The notes: a model not told the origin generated them from the letters alone. 64,000 bases of DNA from an uncultured Spirochaetaceae bacterium (GCA_964458555.1 CAYWJH010000004.1:12379-76378), one strand, 5' to 3'. Shown: positions 46,864 through 56,689, numbered from the stretch's first letter. Made by a program: numbers and translations.

Positions 46864-47822
46864 GAATCCTCCCCGGGCTGCTCGTGTGGTTCGTGTCTGC
46901 GATCGTGCACGCGCTCCACGGTGCGTTCGATCGCGTGCGCGACGGCCCTGCCGTCGGCGCCGGGTGGCGTCTGCTCGATACGTCGCCCCATCTGGGTGAG
47001 CGCTATTCCGCCGAAGATGACCGCGATGCCGGCGACGACAAGCGGAGTCGGCCCGTAGCCGGGAAGCGCGACGAATTGCACCACGACGGGCACGAGCACG
47101 TAGACCGCCGTCTGGAACGGCACCATCGTACTCGCATCGGCCTTCCGGAGAAACGCGTACTGCGCGGTGAGAAACGCGGCGGTACCGAGCACGAAGCTCG
47201 CGACGAAGGGGATCCAGCCCCACGCCACACCCGGCAGAAAGCCCGGCCTGCCGCCTGCCCACTGACCGAGCGCCTTCAGGATCGGGTCAAGGCTCGCCAT
47301 GCCCCCGGACAGCGCGCCGAACGCCGCGGCGAACAGAAAGCGCCTGCCGGTACGGACGACGAAGAGCGCGAAGAGCCCGGCGACGACGATGTAGCCCCCG
47401 GTGAGCCAACCCACGAGCGCGCCGTCGAAGCGCCAGACGTCGACCCCGCCGTGCGACACCGCGTGGAGCGCGAAGAGCGCGGTCCCTGCGACGATCAGAC
47501 CGGCGCCGCCGTAGTTCACCGGAGCGACCGGTTCGCCGAGGACGTAGTGCGAATACAGCAGCAGCACGACGAGACCGAGTCCGAAGACGCCGGTCGCGTA
47601 CGCCGGGGGGGCGAAGCGGTTCGCGAGGATGAGCCAGATCGGCGTCATGTTGTTGAGGACCACGCCGCCAATGTAGATGAACGCCTTGCCGCCCGAGCGC
47701 TCAGACCGCGGGAGCTTCCACCAGCGAAGCGTCTCGATCCCCTGTCGCTGCATTCCCTTCGAAAGGTGAAGCGTCGATGTATTGACGAAGCCGAAGAGCA
47801 TCCCGAGCAGCGGAGACATCAT
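46860..47822 (-). CDS. Polytopic membrane protein, DMT/NIPA-like
   Basis: ATG 47822 (MMSPLLGMLFGFVNTSTLHLSKGMQRQGI..) overlaps the upstream stop. ~9 TM helices. NIPA-like N-terminal pattern recalled from memory only. Confidence 0.55.
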   Translation of the reverse strand: MMSPLLGMLFGFVNTSTLHLSKGMQRQGIETLRWWKLPRSERSGGKAFIYIGGVVLNNMTPIWLILANRFAPPAYATGVFGLGLVVLLLYSHYVLGEPVAPVNYGGAGLIVAGTALFALHAVSHGGVDVWRFDGALVGWLTGGYIVVAGLFALFVVRTGRRFLFAAAFGALSGGMASLDPILKALGQWAGGRPGFLPGVAWGWIPFVASFVLGTAAFLTAQYAFLRKADASTMVPFQTAVYVLVPVVVQFVALPGYGPTPLVVAGIAVIFGGIALTQMGRRIEQTPPGADGRAVAHAIERTVERVHDRRHEPHEQPGEDS

Positions 47823-49135
47823 CGCACCCCTGCATCGATCAGGCCGTAGCTCCGCTTGAGCGCGAGCACGCGCCGCACGCCTCGGTTCACGTCGTCTTCG
47901 GTGAGCTCGCCCGCCTCGATGAGCTCCTCGACCATGCGCACGACCGTGACGACGTCGTAATCGCGGTAGAGCAGGATGAGGTCCACGTCGAAGGTGAACA
48001 GCCGCACGAGCGTGTCGGGAAGCGAGTAGTGGTCCGCGATCGCGCCCATCTCCAGGCCGTCGCTGACGACGACGCCCTCGAACCCGAGCTCGCGCCGCAG
48101 CACGTCGTGCAGGAAGACCCGCGAGAGGGTGACGGGGTAGAAGGGGTCGATTCGTTCGAAGAGAAGGTGGCCCGTCATGATCGCCGGCACCTCCGCGTTG
48201 ATCGCCTCGCGGAACGGCAGCAGATCCGCGGCGAAGAGCTCGTCCCTCGTCACGTCGAGCACGGGAAGCTCGTGGTGCGTGTCGATGGTCGTCAGCCCGT
48301 GTCCGGGGAAGTGCTTCGCGGTGGCGATCACGCCTGCGGCACGGCTCGCTTCCAGGTACGGCCGCACGAATCCGGCGACCGTCCGCGCGTCCGGGCCGAA
48401 ACTGCGGTCGCCGATAATCGAGTCGTTCGCCACCCCGTAGACGTCGAGAACGGGTGCGAAGTTCATGTTGATGCCGAGGTCGGCGAGCTGACGCGCGGTC
48501 ACGTAGGCGGTCGAGCGTACGAGCGAAGGATCCCCGAACCGGCCGATCGACGCGGCCGACGGCAGCCGGACGAACTCGGGAAACCGGAACGTCACCACCC
48601 GACCGCCCTCCTGATCGGCGGCGAGCAACAGCGAGATTCCCGGCGTCACGTGCGAGGCGACGAACTGCAGCGAATCGGTGAGGGCCCGCACGTCGTCTGC
48701 GGTGCGAAAGTTCCACGGATAGATGATGAAGCCGGCCGGCGCGACGTCGACGATAGCCCGTCCCGTACCGTCGGTGACGCGATCACCCTGAACGCGGGCG
48801 ATGAATCGCTGCCCGATGCGCTGGCGCAGCGTCAACGAATCGAGCAGCGCTTCGATCTCGGGGTCGCTCTTCGGGCGTGGGGGGACGGTCGCAGCGATCG
48901 CGCCGATGCGTCCGGCGTAGCGCGGATCGTCGAGCAGGCGGGGATAGCGAGGGCTGCGCTCCGGCTTCTCGTCGATCCGCGGCAGCGGCGCTGTGACCGC
49001 CGGGTGCGTCTCCTCGCGAGGAGCGCCCTCGTCGACGGCGGTAGAATCGGACTCGGTGACGCAGCCGACGAAGACCACGATCGCGGCGAGCGAGAGGAGC
49101 GTGCGCACGTGGGAGAGGGAGCATAGTCTCGCCAT
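47819..49135 (-). CDS. Glycoside hydrolase family 3 (NagZ-like beta-N-acetylhexosaminidase) lipoprotein
   Basis: Lipobox VVFVGC. LTLRQRIGQRF, AADQEGGRV, NMNFAPVLDV, KHFPGHG. Confidence 0.85.
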   Translation of the reverse strand: MARLCSLSHVRTLLSLAAIVVFVGCVTESDSTAVDEGAPREETHPAVTAPLPRIDEKPERSPRYPRLLDDPRYAGRIGAIAATVPPRPKSDPEIEALLDSLTLRQRIGQRFIARVQGDRVTDGTGRAIVDVAPAGFIIYPWNFRTADDVRALTDSLQFVASHVTPGISLLLAADQEGGRVVTFRFPEFVRLPSAASIGRFGDPSLVRSTAYVTARQLADLGINMNFAPVLDVYGVANDSIIGDRSFGPDARTVAGFVRPYLEASRAAGVIATAKHFPGHGLTTIDTHHELPVLDVTRDELFAADLLPFREAINAEVPAIMTGHLLFERIDPFYPVTLSRVFLHDVLRRELGFEGVVVSDGLEMGAIADHYSLPDTLVRLFTFDVDLILLYRDYDVVTVVRMVEELIEAGELTEDDVNRGVRRVLALKRSYGLIDAGVR

Positions 49136-49228: not shown

Positions 49229-50506
49229 TTACGGCCGCACGCGCTTGCGGTCGCGCGGGAAGAGGCTCGCCTCCTTCACGTTTGCGAGCCCGAGGATCTG
49301 CTGCGTCAGCCGTTCGAGACCGATCGCAAAGCCGCCGTGCGGAGGGCAGCCGTACCTGAAGATCGTGCAGTAATCGCCGAGCCCCTCTTCGGTCAGGCCG
49401 AAGCGAGGAAGCGTTTCGAGCAGCATCGCGTAGTCGTGGATGCGTTGTCCGCCGGTGGTGATCTCGAGCCCGCGGAAGAGCAGGTCGAAGCTCTTCGTCT
49501 TCTGGCCGTCGGGGTAGGTGTAGAAGGGGCGCTTCTTCCGGGGAAACGCCGATACGAACACGGCGGGCACGCCGGCGGTCTCCCCGGCCCAGGCGCAGAG
49601 CTCGCGTTCGCCCTCCGGGTTGATCTCGAAGACCTTCTTGCCGCCGCGCTCGGAGATGATCTGCTTCGCCTCGTCGTGGTCGATCCGCGGAATCGCGGCT
49701 ATGTGCTCGGGCGTGGGCACGCTCGCGCCGAAGGCGTCGAGGTCGGCCGCGTTCCGTTCTGCGACGCGCGCGAAGATGTGCGAGAGCAGGCCCGCCTCGA
49801 GGTCCATGAGGTCCTCGTGCCCGCCGATGAACCCCATCTCCACGTCGAGCGAGACGTACTCGTTGAGGTGGCGCGGGGTGTCGTGCTTCTCCGCGCGGTA
49901 CGCCGCGCCGATCTCGAAGACGCGCTCCATGCCGCTCGCGACCATCGCCTGCTTGTAGAACTGCGGCGACTGCGCGAGGTAGACGCGGTCGCCGAAGTAG
50001 TCGACGGTAAACAGACCGGTCCCGCCCTCGGTGCCGGAGCCGATGAGCTTGCTCGACTTGATCTCGGTGAAGTCGTTGGACCGCAGGTAGTCGGCAAACG
50101 CGTCGACGATCGTCGCCTGCACGCGGAAGATCGAGCGGACCTTCGGCATGCGGAGGCTGAGGATGCGGTGATCGAGGAGCGCCTCGATGCCGAGCGAGTC
50201 GGGGTCGCCGTTGACCGAAATGGGCAGGTCGGCCGCGGCCGGCCCGAGCACCTCCGTCTGCGCGGCGTGCAGCTCGTAGCCGCCGGGGGCCTTCTCGTTC
50301 GCCTGGACGGTCCCGGTCACCGTGACGACGCTCTCTACGCTCACGGGCGCCTTCCCCTCGTAGACGACCTGGCCCAGACCGCTGCGGTCGCGGACGAGGA
50401 CAAAGGACACCGCGCCCAGCTCGCGGATCCGGTGGACCCAGCCGGCGAGCGTGACGTCCTCGCCGACGTGGTCGGCGAGCTCGCGGGAGAGAACTCGATT
50501 CATCAT
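49229..50506 (-). CDS. aspS: Aspartate--tRNA ligase, archaeal/type-2 (no GAD insertion; probably non-discriminating)
   Basis: ATG 50506 (MMNRVLSRELADHVGEDVTLAGWVHRIR..) overlaps the gatB TGA. 425 aa. Class-II motifs AYRAEKHDTPRHLNEY and PPHGGFAIGLERL. Confidence 0.9.
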   Translation of the reverse strand: MMNRVLSRELADHVGEDVTLAGWVHRIRELGAVSFVLVRDRSGLGQVVYEGKAPVSVESVVTVTGTVQANEKAPGGYELHAAQTEVLGPAAADLPISVNGDPDSLGIEALLDHRILSLRMPKVRSIFRVQATIVDAFADYLRSNDFTEIKSSKLIGSGTEGGTGLFTVDYFGDRVYLAQSPQFYKQAMVASGMERVFEIGAAYRAEKHDTPRHLNEYVSLDVEMGFIGGHEDLMDLEAGLLSHIFARVAERNAADLDAFGASVPTPEHIAAIPRIDHDEAKQIISERGGKKVFEINPEGERELCAWAGETAGVPAVFVSAFPRKKRPFYTYPDGQKTKSFDLLFRGLEITTGGQRIHDYAMLLETLPRFGLTEEGLGDYCTIFRYGCPPHGGFAIGLERLTQQILGLANVKEASLFPRDRKRVRP

Positions 50507-52914
50507 TGGGCGTGCTCCATCTTCGCGGCGATCGACTCGGCGTCCCACTCCTCGCTCGTGAGCAGGACCGCGAGCAGGCGAGTGTAGACGCTCTCGGTCG
50601 TCAGCGTTCCCATGGGGATCGCGCCGCCGCGCCAGAGGTCGTGGCTCGTGAGATACGTGGAGAAGTCGACGTTGCCCTCCTGCTGCGAGGTGCAGAAGAA
50701 ACCCACCCCGCGCTCGTGCCCGTACTCGAGCGCGTCGCGCAACGAGAAGGGGCTCTCGCGCAGGTTGGCCGTGCCGGTGTCGTAGAGCTCGAGGACGAAG
50801 TAACGCACGCCCGCGTCGATGAGCGCGATGAGCGTGCTCGCCTGCATGCCGGGAAAGGCCTTCGCGACGAAACTCTGCCTCACCGCGTCTTCGAGCCGCT
50901 GTGCGATTTCGTCCAGCCCGGCTTCGACGTTCCCGGGGAGCGCGAGCGCGTACCGGTCGCCGCCGCTCGAGTTCCACGTCCGGAAGGCAGGCGCGTCGCT
51001 CGTGCCCGGCACGCGCTCGAACTTGAGGTTCACCCCCGGAAGCCGCTCGCCGCCGAAGACGACCGAGACGCCCGGCGAGCCGCCGACCGCGATGCGCACC
51101 GCCTCCTTGAACGAGCCGACGCTCTCTTTGCTCTCGCCGGTGGTCGAGCTCGCGACGAGGACGATGGGGATCGAGCGGTCGCCGAAGAGCCAGTGGAGGA
51201 GCCCCGCGGTGTAGGCGAGCGTGTCCGTACCGGTCGCGATCACGACACCGGAAGCCTCGCCGGAGTCGACGTGCGCGGCGGTCGCGTGGATGAGCGCGGC
51301 CCAGTCCCGCGGGGTGATCTCCTCGCTCAGGAAGCCGCCCAGCTCGAGCTCGTCGTAGCGGAGCTCGTTGGGGAGCGTGGGGTCGTCGCGCACCGCGGCG
51401 ATGAGCGGCTCGAGGCTCCCCGGCACGACCACCCCGTCGTCGCGCGTGCGCCCGGAGATCGCGCCGCCGAAGCTGAAGACCGGAATGAAGGTGACGCTCA
51501 GGTGTTCGGAGAGGACCGATTGGACCAGCTTCGGGTCGGCGCGCCCGCTCGTCGCGCGCATGACCTGGCCCACGAGGTAGCCGTGCGGCTTGCTGTCGCC
51601 GGCGCGGATCTGCGCGACCGCGGATTCGTTCTCTTCGAGCACCCCGTCGACGATCCGCCCGATCTCATCCGGGTCGGTGATCTGCTCCCACCCGCGCGCG
51701 GCGATGATCGCCCCGGGATCCTCGTCGTCGGTGAAGACCGCCTCGAGCGTCTGCTTCGCGAGCTTGCCGTGAATGCGCCCCTCGTCGAGCAGGCGCAGGA
51801 GCTCGGCGAGGCGGCCCGGCGTGAGCGGACTGTCACGAAGCGTGGTGCCGGCACGGTTGAGGAGCTTTTGTACGTCGCCCATCAGCCATACGGCGAGATC
51901 TGCAGGCGAGGCGCCCGCCGCCACGGCGGCCTCGAAGAAGTCGGCGGTTTCGCGCTCGTCGCAGAGGAAGGCCGCCTGCGCCTCGCTCAAGCCGTAGTCG
52001 GAGGCGAACCGTCGCTGGCGATCGGGCGGCAGCTCGACGAGCGACTCCTCCACCGACGCGAGAAAGGCCTCGTCGGTGTGGAAGGGAGGCAGATCGGGCT
52101 CGGGAAAGTAGCGGTAGTCGTTCGACGACTCCTTCACGCGCATCGACTCGGAGACGTCGCGGTTCTCGTTCCAGAGCCGGGTCTCCTGCACGATCGTCCC
52201 GCCGCGCTCGAGGATGTCCTGCTGGCGGTCGGTCTCGTAGGTCAGCGCCTTGCGCACGAATCGGAACGAGTTCATGTTCTTGATTTCAACCTTCGTGCCC
52301 AGCCCGGCGCCCTCCTCGTTGACGCTGACGTTCGCGTCGCAGCGCAGCGACCCCTCTTCCATGTTCCCGTCGCAGACGCCCAGGTAGCGGACGAGCCTGC
52401 GGAACTCCTGCAGGAGGTGTTCGGCCTCCTCGCCCATCTCGAGGTCGGGTTCGGTGACGATCTCCAGGAGCGGCGTACCGGCGCGGTTGAAGTCGAGCAG
52501 CGACTCGTCGCCCGCGTGGATCATCTTGCCGGCGTCCTCTTCGAGGTGGCACTCGCGGATGCGAACGCGCTTCTTCTTCTTGCGGAACTCGAGGTCAAGG
52601 TGGCCGTCCGTGCCGAGCGGCGCGGCGAACTGCGAGATCTGGTAATTCTTGGGCAGATCCGGGTAGAAGTAGTTCTTCCGTTCGAAGGCGCAGACCGGCG
52701 CGAGCTCGCAGCCGAGCGCGCGCGCGACGACGTAGCCCAACCGGATCGCCTCCTCGTTGAGCGCGGGGAGCGCGCCGGGGTAGCCGGTACAGACCGGGCA
52801 GATGTTCGTGTTCGGTTCGTCGCCGAAGGCGGCCCGGCAGTCGCAGAAGACCTTCGTCTTCGTGGAGAGCTGGATGTGGATTTCGAGGCCCACGTAGCTG
52901 CGGTAGCTGCTCAT
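50503..52914 (-). CDS. gatB: Asp/Glu-tRNA amidotransferase subunit B fused to a C-terminal type-I-asparaginase/GatD-like domain
   Basis: 803 aa in one uninterrupted frame. Residues 1-472 are GatB (VGLEIHIQL, CPVCTGYPGALP, YQISQ, YFPEPDLPP, YqeY-like tail GYLVGQVMRATSGRADPKLV). Residues 473-803 align by eye with E. coli AnsA: FSFGGAISG, ATGTDTLAYTA, PIVLVASS, FPGM..., GTLTTESVYTRL. Confidence 0.88.
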   Translation of the reverse strand: MSSYRSYVGLEIHIQLSTKTKVFCDCRAAFGDEPNTNICPVCTGYPGALPALNEEAIRLGYVVARALGCELAPVCAFERKNYFYPDLPKNYQISQFAAPLGTDGHLDLEFRKKKKRVRIRECHLEEDAGKMIHAGDESLLDFNRAGTPLLEIVTEPDLEMGEEAEHLLQEFRRLVRYLGVCDGNMEEGSLRCDANVSVNEEGAGLGTKVEIKNMNSFRFVRKALTYETDRQQDILERGGTIVQETRLWNENRDVSESMRVKESSNDYRYFPEPDLPPFHTDEAFLASVEESLVELPPDRQRRFASDYGLSEAQAAFLCDERETADFFEAAVAAGASPADLAVWLMGDVQKLLNRAGTTLRDSPLTPGRLAELLRLLDEGRIHGKLAKQTLEAVFTDDEDPGAIIAARGWEQITDPDEIGRIVDGVLEENESAVAQIRAGDSKPHGYLVGQVMRATSGRADPKLVQSVLSEHLSVTFIPVFSFGGAISGRTRDDGVVVPGSLEPLIAAVRDDPTLPNELRYDELELGGFLSEEITPRDWAALIHATAAHVDSGEASGVVIATGTDTLAYTAGLLHWLFGDRSIPIVLVASSTTGESKESVGSFKEAVRIAVGGSPGVSVVFGGERLPGVNLKFERVPGTSDAPAFRTWNSSGGDRYALALPGNVEAGLDEIAQRLEDAVRQSFVAKAFPGMQASTLIALIDAGVRYFVLELYDTGTANLRESPFSLRDALEYGHERGVGFFCTSQQEGNVDFSTYLTSHDLWRGGAIPMGTLTTESVYTRLLAVLLTSEEWDAESIAAKMEHAQ

Positions 52915-54401
52915 CGCGCGCCCCCTTCGGAGGCGCCGCCGGGCGCGCTGCCGGACCCGCCGGCGGCTATCTCCTCGCAGAGCGGGACCGCGTACGCCGG
53001 CGGCCGCTCCGGCGGGATGGCCTTCGCGGCGAGCGACGCGAACGAGAGCAGACGCTCCTCGCTGAAGGCAGGCCCCATCGCCTGGATACCAACCGGGAGC
53101 CCGTCGTGCACGCCCGCCGGAATCGCGAGCGCCGGAAGCGCGGCGAGGTTCGCCATGGTCGTGAACCGATCGGCTACCTTCTGCTGAAACGCGTCGAGCT
53201 CGCCCTCGCCGTGACGGAACGCCGCAGTGGGGAAGGTGGGCAACACGAGCAGGTCGTAGCGCTCGTAGAGCGTCGCGAGCTCGCGCCGGATCGCCGTACG
53301 GATCCGCTGCGCGCGCTGGTAGTACTGCTCCTGGAAACCGCTGCGCAGCACGTAGGTACCGAGCAGGATGCGGAGCTTCACCTCGCTTCCGAAACCGGCA
53401 CCCCGCGATGCGCGGACGAGCTCCTCCGGGTTCTCCGCGAAGACCGGGCGGTCACCGTAGCGCACGCCGTTGAACCGCGCGAGGTTCGCGCTCGCCTCCG
53501 CGGTGGCGATCGTGTAGTACGCCGGAACGACGTAGTCCGCCGTCTCGAGCTCCACCTCCTCGATGTCGATGTCCTGCGCGGCGACGACCTCGCGCATCCG
53601 CGCGTAGCCGGCCGCGGTTCGCTCGTCGAGACCCAGGTCGCCGCCGAGGAATGCGACGCGACGCACCGTCGCCGGGGGCAGCAAATCATCTGCCGGACGC
53701 GAGACCGACGTCTGGTCCATGCGGTCTTCGCCGGTCGCCGCGACGAAGGCGTCGCGTATCAGCTCGATGTCGTACGACAGCAGGCCGGCGACCTCGAGGG
53801 AGGAGGCGTAGGCGACGAGGCCGTAGCGCGAGAGCGTCCCGTAGGTGGGCTTCAGCCCGTAGACACCGCAGAAGGCGGCCGGCTGGCGCACCGAGCCGCC
53901 GGTGTCGGTACCGAGCGCGAGCGGTACGAGCCCGGCCGCGACCGCCGCGGCCGACCCGCCGGAGGACCCACCGGCGACGCGCTCGGGGTCCCATGGGTTG
54001 TTCGTCGGCCCACCTGCCGAGGTGTCGGTCGAGGAGCCCATGCCGAACTCATCCAGGTTTGTCTTGCCCACGGGAACTGCGCCGGCGGCAAGGAGGCGCG
54101 CGACGACGGTCGCGTCGTAGGGGCAGACGTGGTTTGCCAGGATACGGCTTCCGCACGTGAGCCCGAAGCCGCGCACGGCGATGTTGTCCTTGATCGCGAA
54201 CGGGAGGCCGCCGAGCGAGCCCTTCTGATCGCCGGCCGCCGCCGACGCGTCGCCGGAGGTGGAGGCGACGTCGAGCCGGCGGGTCACATCGGCCTCGAGG
54301 AAGGAAGTGAGCGCCTCGTCGCGCGAGGCGAGCGCCTCGCCGTACGCCTTCGTTGCCAGAGAGAGGACGGATTGCCAACTCGATCGGGAGGGATCGCTCA
54401 T
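52911..54401 (-). CDS. gatA: Asp/Glu-tRNA amidotransferase subunit A (amidase signature)
   Basis: 496 aa. IKDNI, GGSSGGSAAAVAAG, GTDTGGSVRQPA. The stop overlaps the gatB ATG (ATGA). Confidence 0.92.
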   Translation of the reverse strand: MSDPSRSSWQSVLSLATKAYGEALASRDEALTSFLEADVTRRLDVASTSGDASAAAGDQKGSLGGLPFAIKDNIAVRGFGLTCGSRILANHVCPYDATVVARLLAAGAVPVGKTNLDEFGMGSSTDTSAGGPTNNPWDPERVAGGSSGGSAAAVAAGLVPLALGTDTGGSVRQPAAFCGVYGLKPTYGTLSRYGLVAYASSLEVAGLLSYDIELIRDAFVAATGEDRMDQTSVSRPADDLLPPATVRRVAFLGGDLGLDERTAAGYARMREVVAAQDIDIEEVELETADYVVPAYYTIATAEASANLARFNGVRYGDRPVFAENPEELVRASRGAGFGSEVKLRILLGTYVLRSGFQEQYYQRAQRIRTAIRRELATLYERYDLLVLPTFPTAAFRHGEGELDAFQQKVADRFTTMANLAALPALAIPAGVHDGLPVGIQAMGPAFSEERLLSFASLAAKAIPPERPPAYAVPLCEEIAAGGSGSAPGGASEGGAR

Positions 54402-54410
54402 GCGGAAGTC

Positions 54411-54704
54411 CTACAGTACGTTCGGGATCGCGATGAAGCGGTCTTCCAGTTCCGGCGCCTGCTCGAGAATCTCGTCGGCGACGTCGGCACCGGAAGCGGC
54501 CTCCTCGCGCGGAAGGTCGGCGCGAAGACGGTTACCCTCCTGCAGCGCGTGCGTCGTGGGCTCGAGGTCGGACACGTCGACCGCGTCCATCATCGAGAAG
54601 TACTCGAGCAGCTGCGCGACGCCACGCTCGAGATTAGCGCGTTCGTCATCCGAGAGGTCGAGGAGCGCGAGTTCCGCTGTGATGTCAAGCTCGCTGCGAT
54701 CCAT
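54411..54704 (-). CDS. gatC: Asp/Glu-tRNA amidotransferase subunit C
   Basis: 97 aa. ..AELALLDLSDDERANLERGVAQLLEYFSMMDAVDVSDLEPTTH.. is typical GatC. It lies 9 nt upstream of gatA. Confidence 0.85.
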   Translation of the reverse strand: MDRSELDITAELALLDLSDDERANLERGVAQLLEYFSMMDAVDVSDLEPTTHALQEGNRLRADLPREEAASGADVADEILEQAPELEDRFIAIPNVL

Positions 54705-54737: not shown

Positions 54738-55103
54738 TCAAGCAAGCGCCCGGGCGAGCGCTGCGCGAAGATCGTCCGAAGAGAACGGCTTGGCGAGTAC
54801 GGCGAGCGCGCCGTACTGTTCGACAAGACGCGTGATCGAGGCGTCGCCGAAGGTCACCCTGCCGGACATGACGATGATGGGCAGGCCGGGTCTGATCGAG
54901 CGGATCTCCATGATCGTCTCGATCCCGCCCTTGCCGGGCATCACGAGATCGAGCAGGAGCGCGTCGAAGCTCGTCTCCTGCAGTTTCTCGATCGCTTCCG
55001 CGCCGGTGAGCGCGATCTCCGGGGTGTGGTTGTCGTTTTCGAGGATGCGAGCGACGAGGCTGCAGATCTGCTCGTCGTCGTCAACTACCAGAATATGCGC
55101 CAT
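54738..55103 (-). CDS. Single-domain response regulator (CheY-like receiver)
   Basis: 121 aa. ILVVDDDE, phospho-acceptor context LLLDLVMPG, conserved AKPF. Confidence 0.85.
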   Translation of the reverse strand: MAHILVVDDDEQICSLVARILENDNHTPEIALTGAEAIEKLQETSFDALLLDLVMPGKGGIETIMEIRSIRPGLPIIVMSGRVTFGDASITRLVEQYGALAVLAKPFSSDDLRAALARALA

Positions 55104-55228: not shown

Positions 55229-56689
55229 TTGGAAACATATAAGGATGAACCGACGACGGGAACGGTAGCTTCGAAACGAGAATTCCCCAGCATCCATTTC
55301 TACGATCAGGACTTCGTTGACGTGTACAATCAGACGTGGGCCTGGTCGTACGAGTTCTGGCGCAAGCCGTCGTCGAAGAGCAAGCTCAGCCACGCCTTCT
55401 TCGCGCATCCGGACGCCGAGACGCTCGGTCAGTTCGAATCGATCATGTCCACGTTCTTTCTCGTGTACAGCAACCGGATCTACCCTGCAGGGTCGCAGCT
55501 CGACAACTTCTACGCGCTGCAGGAAGAAGACGGGGCGATCCGCGGTACGTACGGAATCAATGACGGCAAACCGCGCTTCACGAAGGACAACCCGAATGGC
55601 GCCGAACCGCCGCTGTTCTCCTGGGCCGAATACAACATCTACCACAAGATAGGCAACAAGAAGCGCATCCGCGACGTCATGCCGGTGCTCGAGAGGTACT
55701 TCGCCTGGCTCGAAGAGACGTACAAGGACGATTCGGGTCTCTACGCCGTGCCCATGGCGGCAACGATCATGACGAACTCGCCGCGCAAGGGCGCGCACTA
55801 TCCGATCGACTTCAACGCGCAACAGGCGCTGAACGCGCTCTACATGGCGCAGCTGGGCGAGATCCTCAACGACAAAGAGGTCAGCTTCAGGTACAATCGG
55901 CACTTTTTCTCGCTGAAGACCCGTATCAACAATCTGATGTGGAACGATGACGACGGGTTCTACTACGACCTCGACCGGAAGCAGGAACAGGTACGGGTCA
56001 AGTCGCTCGCGAGCTTCTGGCCGTTGCTGGCCGAGTTGCCGAACGAAGACAGGTCCGAGAGGCTGATGGCGCACCTGAGCGATCCCGAGACCTTCGGGAT
56101 CGAGAACCCGTTTCCGACCCTCGCCGCGAACGAAGAGCAGTTCTCCGAACGCGGCACCGGCTACCGGGGTTCGGTGCTCTCGCCGTTCACCTTCATGGTC
56201 ATCAAGGGGCTCGAAAAGTACGGCAAGTACGAGTTCGCGCGGGAGTGCGCGATCCGCCACCTCTACTACATCCTGGACACGCTCCACCCGGAGGGCAAGG
56301 AGAAGGGACGGTTGTGGGAGGCGTACCTGCCGCGCAAGGACGGCGCCGCGCAGTGGCCCGGCAAGAAGGACTGGCCGCGCGCGCACAACCTCTCCTACGC
56401 CGGGCTTGCGACGATCGCGCTGATGATCGAGAACATCATCGGACTGTACGTCAGCCTGCCGCGAAAGACCGTCGACTGGATCGTGCCCACGCTCGAGATC
56501 ATGGGGATCGAAAACCTGTCGCTCAAGCGCAACATGATCACCATCCTCTCGAACAAGAGCGGCCGCGGTTGGGAGATCCGACTCGAGAGCGAGAAGCTGT
56601 ACTACTTCACGATCGACGTGCTGGGCAAGAAGCGCAAGACGCTGCCGATCCCGTCGGGTAAGTGCAGTATGCTCATAGACAAGCTGTAG
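55229..56689 (+). CDS. Six-hairpin (alpha/alpha)6 glycoside hydrolase, GH63/GH37/MGH1-like
   Basis: 486 aa. ..PPLFSWAEYNIY.., ..FNAQQALNALYMAQL.., ..FWPLLAE.., ..YRGSVLSPFTFMVIKGL.., ..LWEAY... Assigned at fold level only. TTG start. GC lower than the flanks. Confidence 0.65.
   Translation: METYKDEPTTGTVASKREFPSIHFYDQDFVDVYNQTWAWSYEFWRKPSSKSKLSHAFFAHPDAETLGQFESIMSTFFLVYSNRIYPAGSQLDNFYALQEEDGAIRGTYGINDGKPRFTKDNPNGAEPPLFSWAEYNIYHKIGNKKRIRDVMPVLERYFAWLEETYKDDSGLYAVPMAATIMTNSPRKGAHYPIDFNAQQALNALYMAQLGEILNDKEVSFRYNRHFFSLKTRINNLMWNDDDGFYYDLDRKQEQVRVKSLASFWPLLAELPNEDRSERLMAHLSDPETFGIENPFPTLAANEEQFSERGTGYRGSVLSPFTFMVIKGLEKYGKYEFARECAIRHLYYILDTLHPEGKEKGRLWEAYLPRKDGAAQWPGKKDWPRAHNLSYAGLATIALMIENIIGLYVSLPRKTVDWIVPTLEIMGIENLSLKRNMITILSNKSGRGWEIRLESEKLYYFTIDVLGKKRKTLPIPSGKCSMLIDKL

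Follow-up and report, generated by a model that had tools for sequence, protein, structure and literature searches.

A nucleophile-less asparaginase fold on the tail of GatB, a conserved fusion of the Spirochaetota

Why should the GatB subunit of a bacterial tRNA-dependent amidotransferase carry an asparaginase fold when the same operon encodes the glutaminase subunit GatA? The question is raised by a 64,000 nt stretch of DNA from an uncultured Spirochaetaceae bacterium (GCA_964458555.1 CAYWJH010000004.1:12379-76378; the whole stretch is referred to here as the window), in which the gatB open reading frame (ORF) continues past its usual end into an asparaginase-like extension and is followed by aspS, the gene for an aspartyl-tRNA synthetase of the non-discriminating kind (ND-AspRS). 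Most bacteria cannot translate accurately without the GatCAB amidotransferase, which has been proposed as a drug target, and an asparaginase-fold partner of a GatB-type kinase subunit is known only from archaea (GatDE). An earlier note on this DNA offered three options for the extension, namely a second ammonia source hard-wired to GatB, a catalytically dead fold reused as an amino acid sensor, and a docking module for AspRS in a transamidosome. The reading we prefer joins elements of the latter two, with the extension viewed as a conserved domain that has most likely lost its activity.

Positions 50503..52914 on the minus strand form a single ORF of 803 amino acids (aa), with neither a stop codon nor a frame shift past the YqeY tail. 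The ORF call and the DNA read agree that gatB runs on in frame for 331 codons, as the earlier note had claimed, with Leu472 encoded by CTG at 51501-51499, Ser473 opening the extension at 51498, Gln803 the last residue, and the TGA stop at 50505-50503. Residues 1-472 are a canonical GatB. GatB_N of Pfam matches residues 7-285 (5e-113) and GatB_Yqey matches residues 325-472 over its full length (7e-44), and the NCBIfam equivalog models NF004012 and TIGR00133 score 615.6 bits (cut-off 338) and 537 bits (cut-off 314.8) respectively, with the GatE models reaching 131-162 bits, under their own cut-offs. The motifs LEIH, KNYFYPD..YQISQ, HLEEDAGK, LLEIVTEPD, RCDANVS, and DYRYFPEPD are all complete, and are also kept in the operon-type relatives described below. 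The protein thus shares with the GatB of bacterial GatCAB its equivalog score, catalytic motifs, and layout of cradle, helical domain, and YqeY tail, as well as co-transcribed gatC and gatA, and agrees with GatB in every feature tested but length, with 803 residues in place of ~475-500 ending with the YqeY tail, and an asparaginase fold in the 331 residues past residue 472. To our knowledge, characterised GatB proteins end at the tail domain. That of S. aureus ends at residue 475 (PMC2811023). The 803-residue protein is best explained as the housekeeping GatB of a GatCAB amidotransferase.

The fold of the extension is equally clear, with both lobes of the asparaginase family recognised by Pfam (Asparaginase, PF00710, 5e-19 and 68.9 bits against a gathering cut-off of 22.5 bits; Asparaginase_C, PF17763, 2e-9 and 37.7 bits against 34.6 bits), all four Pfam domains of the fusion protein exceeding their cut-offs. 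An AlphaFold2 (AF2) model of the extension alone has a predicted local distance difference test score (pLDDT) of 85.5 and a predicted template modelling score (pTM) of 0.88, and its best structure matches in Foldseek have template modelling scores (TM) of 0.77-0.78 and E values of 1e-19 to 1e-17, with a TM of 0.77 to both P. furiosus asparaginase (4q0m) and P. abyssi GatD (1zq1), and of 0.73-0.78 to type I asparaginases overall. The same two structures are the best solved matches by sequence (E values of 1e-19 for 1zq1 and 5e-18 for 4q0m). The asparaginase fold that had been aligned by eye in the earlier note is therefore confirmed by profile and by model.

Despite this similarity, the extension belongs neither to the type I asparaginases nor to GatD by nucleophile and score cut-offs. 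The fold, the Thr-Asp motif, and the LSEE Ser are shared with the type I L-asparaginases (P. furiosus/P. horikoshii type and E. coli AnsA), however Ala stands in for the nucleophilic Thr, the place of the first Thr of TGGT is taken by Phe, Met, or Leu, no clear free-standing member was found, and the scores against TIGR00519 (82-86 bits, cut-off 260.5) and AnsA NF006998 (51-55 bits, cut-off 376) are low. Archaeal GatD has the same two-lobe fold (TM 0.77 to 1zq1_A) and is likewise associated with a GatB/GatE-type tRNA-dependent kinase, forming the homodimeric core of α2β2 GatDE (PMC2330236). In contrast to GatD, the extension has no match to the GatD N-terminal domain (PF18195, carried by the GatD matches P0091 and P0092), scores 78-81 bits against NF003217 (cut-off 310) and 76-80 bits against TIGR02153 (cut-off 324), has Ala rather than Thr at the nucleophile position, and is joined covalently to the C-terminus of the GatB tail of a bacterial host. 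Furthermore, GatD partners a separate GatE subunit and replaces GatA, whereas here the partner is a true GatB and GatA is present. The likeness to GatDE lies in the pairing of an asparaginase fold with a GatB-type kinase, and the specific link to GatD drawn previously is not supported, the extension being as similar to stand-alone archaeal-type type I asparaginases as it is to GatD. Descent from GatD specifically is likewise not supported by these equivalent scores, nor by the nearest matches outside the family in the exhaustive protein search described below, which are 317-370 aa in length.

An unusual fusion in a single assembly raises the suspicion of an artefact, be it a frameshift, the loss of a stop codon, or chimeric assembly, or else of a decaying, functionless relic. 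A scan of one genome per GTDB species recovered 66 loci with both a GatB part and the extension, the two being contiguous and in the same frame in 66/66, and 65 of these carry Spirochaetota names (among them Spirochaetales, Alkalispirochaeta, Treponema, Treponematales, Gracilinema caldarium, and the cultured Breznakiella homolactica RmG30), with complete genomes of cultured strains among the carriers. Under the name 'GatB [Spirochaetota bacterium]', the identical 803-aa protein is present on 14 independent contigs from four sources (NCBI, ENA, JGI, and Logan). The contiguity and the 14 contigs leave no room for a mis-join or frameshift, and the stop or frameshift separating two genes that the earlier note had allowed for is ruled out by the 66 loci. 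The ratio of nonsynonymous to synonymous substitution rates (dN/dS) of the extension is 0.24 against locus L001 and 0.24-0.30 overall, compared with 0.13-0.19 for GatB, and dozens of its residues are invariant and specific to the family; the extension is therefore functional and not decaying. Together with the confident fold model, these data leave the artefact or relic explanation a negligible probability, and nothing was found in its favour.

Searches of wider scope support a family that is confined to GatB-type proteins. With the extension alone as query, a word-indexed search returned ~86 relatives of 37-78% identity, many with GatB domains as well. An exhaustive HMMER search of 1.84 billion representative proteins returned ~35 clusters at 50% identity (E<=1e-29), beyond which the matches fall sharply to ordinary asparaginases. 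All full-length family members from this search are 789-817 aa in length and have the start of the domain near residue 472, and the 1.84 billion proteins yielded no unambiguous stand-alone member. Short hits were considered as stand-alone members and rejected, as they start within the GatB tail or exactly at MGGAI and represent truncated gene calls. The invariable attachment of the domain to a GatB-type protein, at about residue 472, implies a function that depends on GatB. The fusion is thus no one-off but a conserved, lineage-wide feature of the Spirochaetota, deposited under generic names and uncharacterised. NCBI names the family either GatB or "asparaginase domain-containing protein", and the member from cultured Treponema phagedenis (WP_252507105, UniProt A0A0B7GZF5) appears variously as 'asparaginase domain-containing protein', 'glutamyl-tRNA amidotransferase', and 'asparaginase'. 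The concern that the architecture might be common and already annotated proved right in that it is common and deposited, and wrong in that no function is attached to it; no publication on this architecture was found, with subscription-only papers outside the scope of the search, in keeping with the statement of the earlier note that no GatB of this kind had been characterised.

These inconsistent names ('GatB', 'asparaginase domain-containing protein', 'asparaginase', and 'glutamyl-tRNA amidotransferase') mask two subfamilies. The operon-type comprises 25 species-level loci, partial ones included, with the order gatC-gatA-gatB::asnase-aspS, canonical GatB motifs, and a GatB part 60-86% identical to that of the window. 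The Treponema-type, found in ~39 species, is without linked gatC, gatA, or aspS, and its GatB-like half is only 30-43% identical, with LEIH changed to LEVR, LLEIVTEPD to SLRIxT, and RCDANVS to RCNAYVA, and with KNYFYPD and DYRYFPEPD lost. The His-to-Arg change in LEIH and the Glu-to-Arg change in LLEIVTEPD affect positions that we take to be Mg ligands. Scoring 257-278 bits, under every GatB equivalog cut-off, the Treponema-type proteins are probably divergent GatB-like paralogues of different function rather than housekeeping GatB, judging from these substitutions. The set includes loci L011, L019-L022, various of L024-L061, and L070, as well as proteins P0137 and P0146, and its carriers include the cultured T. 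phagedenis, Breznakiella homolactica, and Gracilinema caldarium; some proteins of the set keep Thr or Ser at the nucleophile position. Additionally, a distant set of fusions (P0156, P0157, P0160, P0161, and P0162, all with a canonical GatB, and P0154) has extensions of 30-34% identity, with the GatB N-terminus canonical where present; of these, P0156 (L082 6001-8442) lies in the same operon of response regulator, gatC, gatA, gatB::asnase, and aspS.

Does the extension retain the machinery of an asparaginase? Reading of the codons and alignment to 25 outgroup sequences bear out the earlier observation that the first catalytic Thr is Ala while the Thr-Asp of the second motif is kept, and the codons quoted for it are correct (A485 = GCG, 51462-51460; T563 = ACG, 51228-51226; D564 = GAC, 51225-51223). 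For the ASPARAGINASE active site, the nucleophile column contains Thr in 25/25 outgroup asparaginases and GatD proteins, and Ala (51), Thr (3), Ser (1), or Gly (1) among the family matches of the word-indexed search. Of the 24 operon-type species genomes that can be read at this position, 23 have Ala and the 24th (L009) has X residues, with Thr (7 species), Ser (7), and Gly (1) confined to one Treponema-type clade. An earlier residue of the motif is also altered, the first Thr of TGGT being replaced by Phe, Met, or Leu.

Other elements of the active site are better preserved. The Thr-Asp motif has its Thr in 72/75 and its Asp in 74/75 aligned sequences, and within the close family this motif, the LSEE Ser, and the basic residue of NLKFE are almost invariant, with the TSQ and PMG..TTE motifs of the asparaginase C-lobe also kept in the extension. 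We liken Ser530 to the substrate-binding Ser of asparaginases, presumably the equivalent of Ser58 in E. coli AnsB. Catalysis by GatD employs a Thr nucleophile and a Thr-Lys-Asp triad (PMC2330236), and scoring of the extension against GatD and the asparaginases gives a mixed result, in that the nucleophile is lost and the Thr-Asp is present, whilst MAFFT and hhalign both place Lys631 one column to the N-terminal side of the canonical catalytic Lys, with an invariant Phe filling the Lys column, yet its spacing is canonical when counted back from the D-[AG]-F motif. At residue 631, L012, L018, L038, and L065 have Arg and L063 has Gln. The distant canonical-GatB fusions have Leu or Ala in place of the second Thr (HGLDT, HGADT), and their Lys motif reads NLRM, NIKM, NLQM, or WAVHL. 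Some member of the family can thus do without each of the canonical catalytic residues, whilst the fold, the Asp, and the Ser persist. The structure matches include asparaginases in which the nucleophilic Thr was mutated to Ala and which were crystallised with Asn bound (7c8x and 5dnc), and by analogy these are consistent with binding accompanied by little or no turnover.

The other genes of the cluster bear on whether the extension replaces any of them. The minus strand carries, in order, a CheY-like response regulator, gatC, gatA, gatB::asnase, and aspS, with ATGA overlaps between the gatA stop and gatB start (junction sequence GCGATGAGC) and between the gatB::asnase stop and aspS start (junction sequence CAATGATGAAT). 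The GatA and the adjacent AspRS of which the earlier note made use are thus in place, with gatC and gatA directly upstream and aspS overlapping the stop of the fusion. GatA has its Lys/cis-Ser/Ser signature motifs (KDN with K71, GGSSGGS, and GTDTGGSVRQPA), AspRS scores 515.7 bits against the NCBIfam aspartate--tRNA(Asn) ligase model (cut-off 353) and 394.5 bits against TIGR00458 (cut-off 368.4), and gatC is retained upstream of gatA across the operon-type loci. With the GatA and GatB motifs intact and gatC and an ND-AspRS gene alongside, the window therefore holds a complete and apparently functional Asn-transamidation operon in which the extension stands in for no part. The top NCBIfam model for GatA, gatA TIGR00132, scores 465.1 bits, a little under its equivalog cut-off of 481.1 with the motifs intact, and the GatA of this lineage is somewhat divergent.

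It might still be argued that the extension is an amidohydrolase, either a GatD-like second source of ammonia or an asparaginase in another role, acting through Thr563 or a different nucleophile. The two-lobe fold is complete, its Thr-Asp, Ser, and Lys motifs are under purifying selection, some Treponema-type relatives, including that of T. phagedenis, have Thr or Ser at the nucleophile position, and GatD sets a precedent for an asparaginase fold that feeds a GatB-type kinase (PMC2330236). However, the nucleophile is Ala here and in nearly all readable operon-type genomes, and the Thr-to-Ala asparaginase mutants above still hold Asn in their crystals. Lys631 is off-register in the profile alignment and gives way to Arg or Gln in some species, the second Thr is gone from the related canonical-GatB fusions, and an intact GatA is co-transcribed. 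The domain is also attached to the distal tail rather than to the cradle, the site of GatA docking and of the entry of the ammonia channel, as inferred from S. aureus GatCAB (PMC2811023). We regard continued hydrolysis as quite improbable, and the hard-wired second ammonia source is disfavoured in particular, given the Ala of 23/24 genomes, the loss of the second Thr and Lys elsewhere, the intact GatA, and the attachment to the tail. The GatA and GatB motifs being intact, no replacement source of ammonia is needed. The domain of the window is probably non-catalytic with GatA still supplying ammonia, and the extension is most likely a pseudoenzyme, a loss of activity deduced from the Ala of the operon-type species, the loss of the second Thr and Lys in distant members, and purifying selection on the remainder.

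If the extension is a pseudoenzyme, its position on GatB offers some indication of what it may do. In a full-length AF2 model (mean pLDDT 85.3, pTM 0.59) the last tail helix (residues 461-472) is separated by two residues from the opening strand of the asparaginase fold (residues 475-482), with a pLDDT of ~83-87 at this junction, and the GatB tail is predicted to be joined to the asparaginase fold without a flexible linker. In S. aureus GatB, the D-loop of the tRNA is bound by the tail domain (residues 412-475), which a flexible hinge connects to the remaining GatB (PMC2811023). Welded to such a tail, the domain would therefore ride on the module that binds the tRNA elbow, away from the active site of the cradle.

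The mechanism that we propose begins with GatCAB and the co-transcribed ND-AspRS, which would make Asn-tRNA(Asn) and probably also Gln-tRNA(Gln), with ammonia supplied by GatA and the extension no longer hydrolysing Asn or Gln. Held by its two-residue junction on the mobile, elbow-binding YqeY tail, the extension would be kept under selection by a non-catalytic task, of which homodimerisation appears the likeliest by analogy. The known asparaginase-fold proteins, GatD included, are obligate dimers, and self-association of the extension would therefore couple two GatCAB units tail-to-tail, an arrangement that would suit the two-fold symmetric, class II AspRS dimer encoded by the overlapping gene. 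The resulting particle would be a transamidosome with a scaffold built of protein in place of scaffold tRNA, and a free amino acid (Asn, Asp, or Gln) may still find a binding site in the retained Ser/Thr-Asp/Lys pocket, adding a regulatory input. As a whole, this reading of a non-catalytic structural module that dimerises GatCAB or organises the transamidosome, perhaps with amino acid binding, is put forward tentatively and falls somewhat short of probable.

Comparison with the T. thermophilus Asn-transamidosome is instructive, as the same enzyme set, an archaeal-type ND-AspRS and GatCAB, is encoded together in that organism (PMC3367201), and the particle needs an extra, non-substrate scaffold tRNA for its stability (PMC3367201). 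This reliance on tRNA leaves room for a protein scaffold, and whilst the Thermus particle is held by scaffold tRNA, here the extra domain of GatB might serve instead. Covalent fusions are also seen elsewhere in the pathway, in AspRS-GatC (NCBIfam NF009460), the gatC-gatA of M. smegmatis (PMC7541841), and the GlnRS-YqeY of D. radiodurans (PMC1865053), and demonstrate that the transamidosome and tRNA-handling machinery tolerates and exploits domain fusion. However, these fusions join known partners, whereas the fold added here has no role in bacterial GatCAB, and no asparaginase-fold fusion was found among the other known fusions of the indirect aminoacylation pathway.

A related explanation dispenses with dimerisation and holds that the extension is solely an allosteric sensor, its dead pocket binding free Asn, Asp, or Gln to tune tRNA binding by the tail or the activity of GatCAB, for example as feedback on tRNA-dependent Asn synthesis. 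Near-invariance of Ser530, Thr563, Asp564, and the basic residue 631 in the close family, even with the nucleophile gone, would suit a binding pocket, as would the substrate-bound crystals of the Thr-to-Ala asparaginases 7c8x and 5dnc, and a rigid two-residue junction could pass a conformational signal to the tRNA-binding tail. The pocket is not uniformly retained, however, with the distant canonical-GatB fusions replacing both Thr and Lys (HGLDT, NLRM/NLQM), and conservation of the GTDT turn may be structural. A purely sensory role is judged unlikely, though it is a role that deserves consideration.

Nor does the evidence favour a dedicated docking platform that binds ND-AspRS directly rather than through self-association. 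It is true that aspS overlaps the stop of the fusion and comes close behind it in each of the 24 operon-type loci with sufficient flank, as well as in the distant L082, and that the archaeal-type ND-AspRS is without the GAD domain (PMC3367201). Linkage of aspS to gatCAB is nevertheless expected from their shared pathway, with or without an extension, and the Treponema-type relatives keep the domain without linked aspS, gatA, or gatC. The sole apparent fusion of asparaginase and AspRS, P0080 (Asparaginase_C with an AspRS OB domain), was considered as a GatB-asnase-AspRS triple fusion and rejected as a frameshift artefact, as gatA, gatB, and aspS are all fragmented in its locus, L081. Direct docking of AspRS is accordingly rated as rather improbable. 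Retention of the pairing in the Treponema-type proteins without aspS and with a remodelled GatB site suggests that the two halves work as a unit in a role that is not purely AspRS-specific.

Several observations weigh against the scaffold that we prefer. The pTM of the full-length model, at just 0.59, means that the position of the domain relative to the GatB cradle is not predicted. The near-invariant Ser, GTDT, and Lys motifs of the close family would fit residual or altered catalysis equally well, and some Treponema-type relatives keep Thr or Ser at the nucleophile position; activity may thus have been present in the ancestral domain, and the extension here may work by an unconventional mechanism. 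The absence of linked aspS from the Treponema-type loci, noted above, also counts against a role tied to AspRS alone. A broader proposal, which we consider possible but doubtful, is that the Spirochaetota possess an undescribed amidotransferase in which a silent asparaginase fold on the GatB tail serves as a dimeric scaffold or amino acid switch, convergent with GatD2E2, with the Treponema paralogue, having a remodelled GatB site and sometimes an intact nucleophile, perhaps possessing a different activity.

While the architecture of a GatCAB variant carrying a pseudo-asparaginase domain is already deposited and common, it is functionally uncharacterised. A bacterial lineage with a nucleophile-less asparaginase fold on a bona fide GatB would represent a natural conversion of enzyme to pseudoenzyme within the core translation machinery, of interest to specialists in tRNA-dependent amidotransferases and in pseudoenzymes, and provides a testable model for transamidosome cohesion or regulation that bears on the recruitment of GatD from asparaginases. 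Furthermore, the Treponema paralogue is a conserved protein of a clinically relevant genus, present in the cultured T. phagedenis.

The coordinates of the fusion, its active-site positions, and the remaining genes of the cluster are collected in Table 1.

Table 1. Features of the gatB::asnase cluster, with positions counted from the first nucleotide of the window
Feature	Position	Strand	Basis
Canonical GatB part, aa 1-472 (cradle, helical, YqeY tail)	51499..52914	-	NCBIfam and motifs
Asparaginase-like extension, aa 473-803 (331 residues)	50506..51498	-	Pfam, AF2 model; TGA at 50503-50505
N-terminal lobe of asparaginase fold, aa 479-629	51028..51480	-	PF00710
C-terminal lobe of asparaginase fold, aa 683-795	50530..50868	-	PF17763
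Ala485 (GCG) at the nucleophilic Thr position; canonical TGGTIA is FGGAIS here	51460..51462	-	Codon read, alignment
Ser530 of the invariant LSEE motif	51325..51327	-	Codon read; invariant in family alignments
Thr563-Asp564 in [HT]GTDT; the second catalytic Thr and the Asp are both kept	51223..51228	-	Codon read, alignment
Lys631 of the conserved NLKFE motif	51022..51024	-	Alignment
CheY-like single-domain response regulator, first gene of cluster	54738..55103	-	Pfam Response_reg 3e-22
gatC	54411..54704	-	Pfam GatC 1e-13
gatA, amidase-type glutaminase subunit	52911..54401	-	Pfam Amidase 3e-130
aspS, archaeal-type non-discriminating AspRS, 425 aa	49229..50506	-	NCBIfam

Frameshifts affect a few of the loci that were compared. 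In L077, L056, and L081 the same operon is broken by many frameshifts, as is typical of uncorrected long-read assemblies. L077 (CAVVRF010000006.1), the one of the 66 loci without a Spirochaetota name, is labelled as an Alphaproteobacteria bacterium, however its genes are 58-72% identical to spirochaetal ones and it has probably been mis-binned.

The response regulator has the orientation of gatC, from which it is separated by 33 nt on the upstream side, and is an odd partner for an operon of the translation machinery. It occupies this place only in some relatives (L001, L002, L003, L005, L006, and L082) and is absent from most operon-type loci. The whole 64-kb window yielded no tRNA genes and, at gathering thresholds, nothing that matches Rfam, including any leader or riboswitch RNA near the operon.

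Directly downstream of aspS lies a GH3 (NagZ-like) glycoside hydrolase (47819-49135, minus strand), conserved in that place only in the nearest relatives (L001, L002, L012, and L032). On the other side of the cluster, and divergent from it, is an MGH1-like (GH63/trehalase-type) glycoside hydrolase (55229-56689, plus strand). The G+C content is ~65-72% over the operon and falls to 55-60% over the region of the MGH1-like gene. This gene keeps its place in 50 of the fetched Spirochaetota loci (L001-L066), operon-type and Treponema-type alike, and its product is 54-86% identical across loci, exceeding the identity of the asparaginase-like domain, a deep synteny without an obvious functional link.

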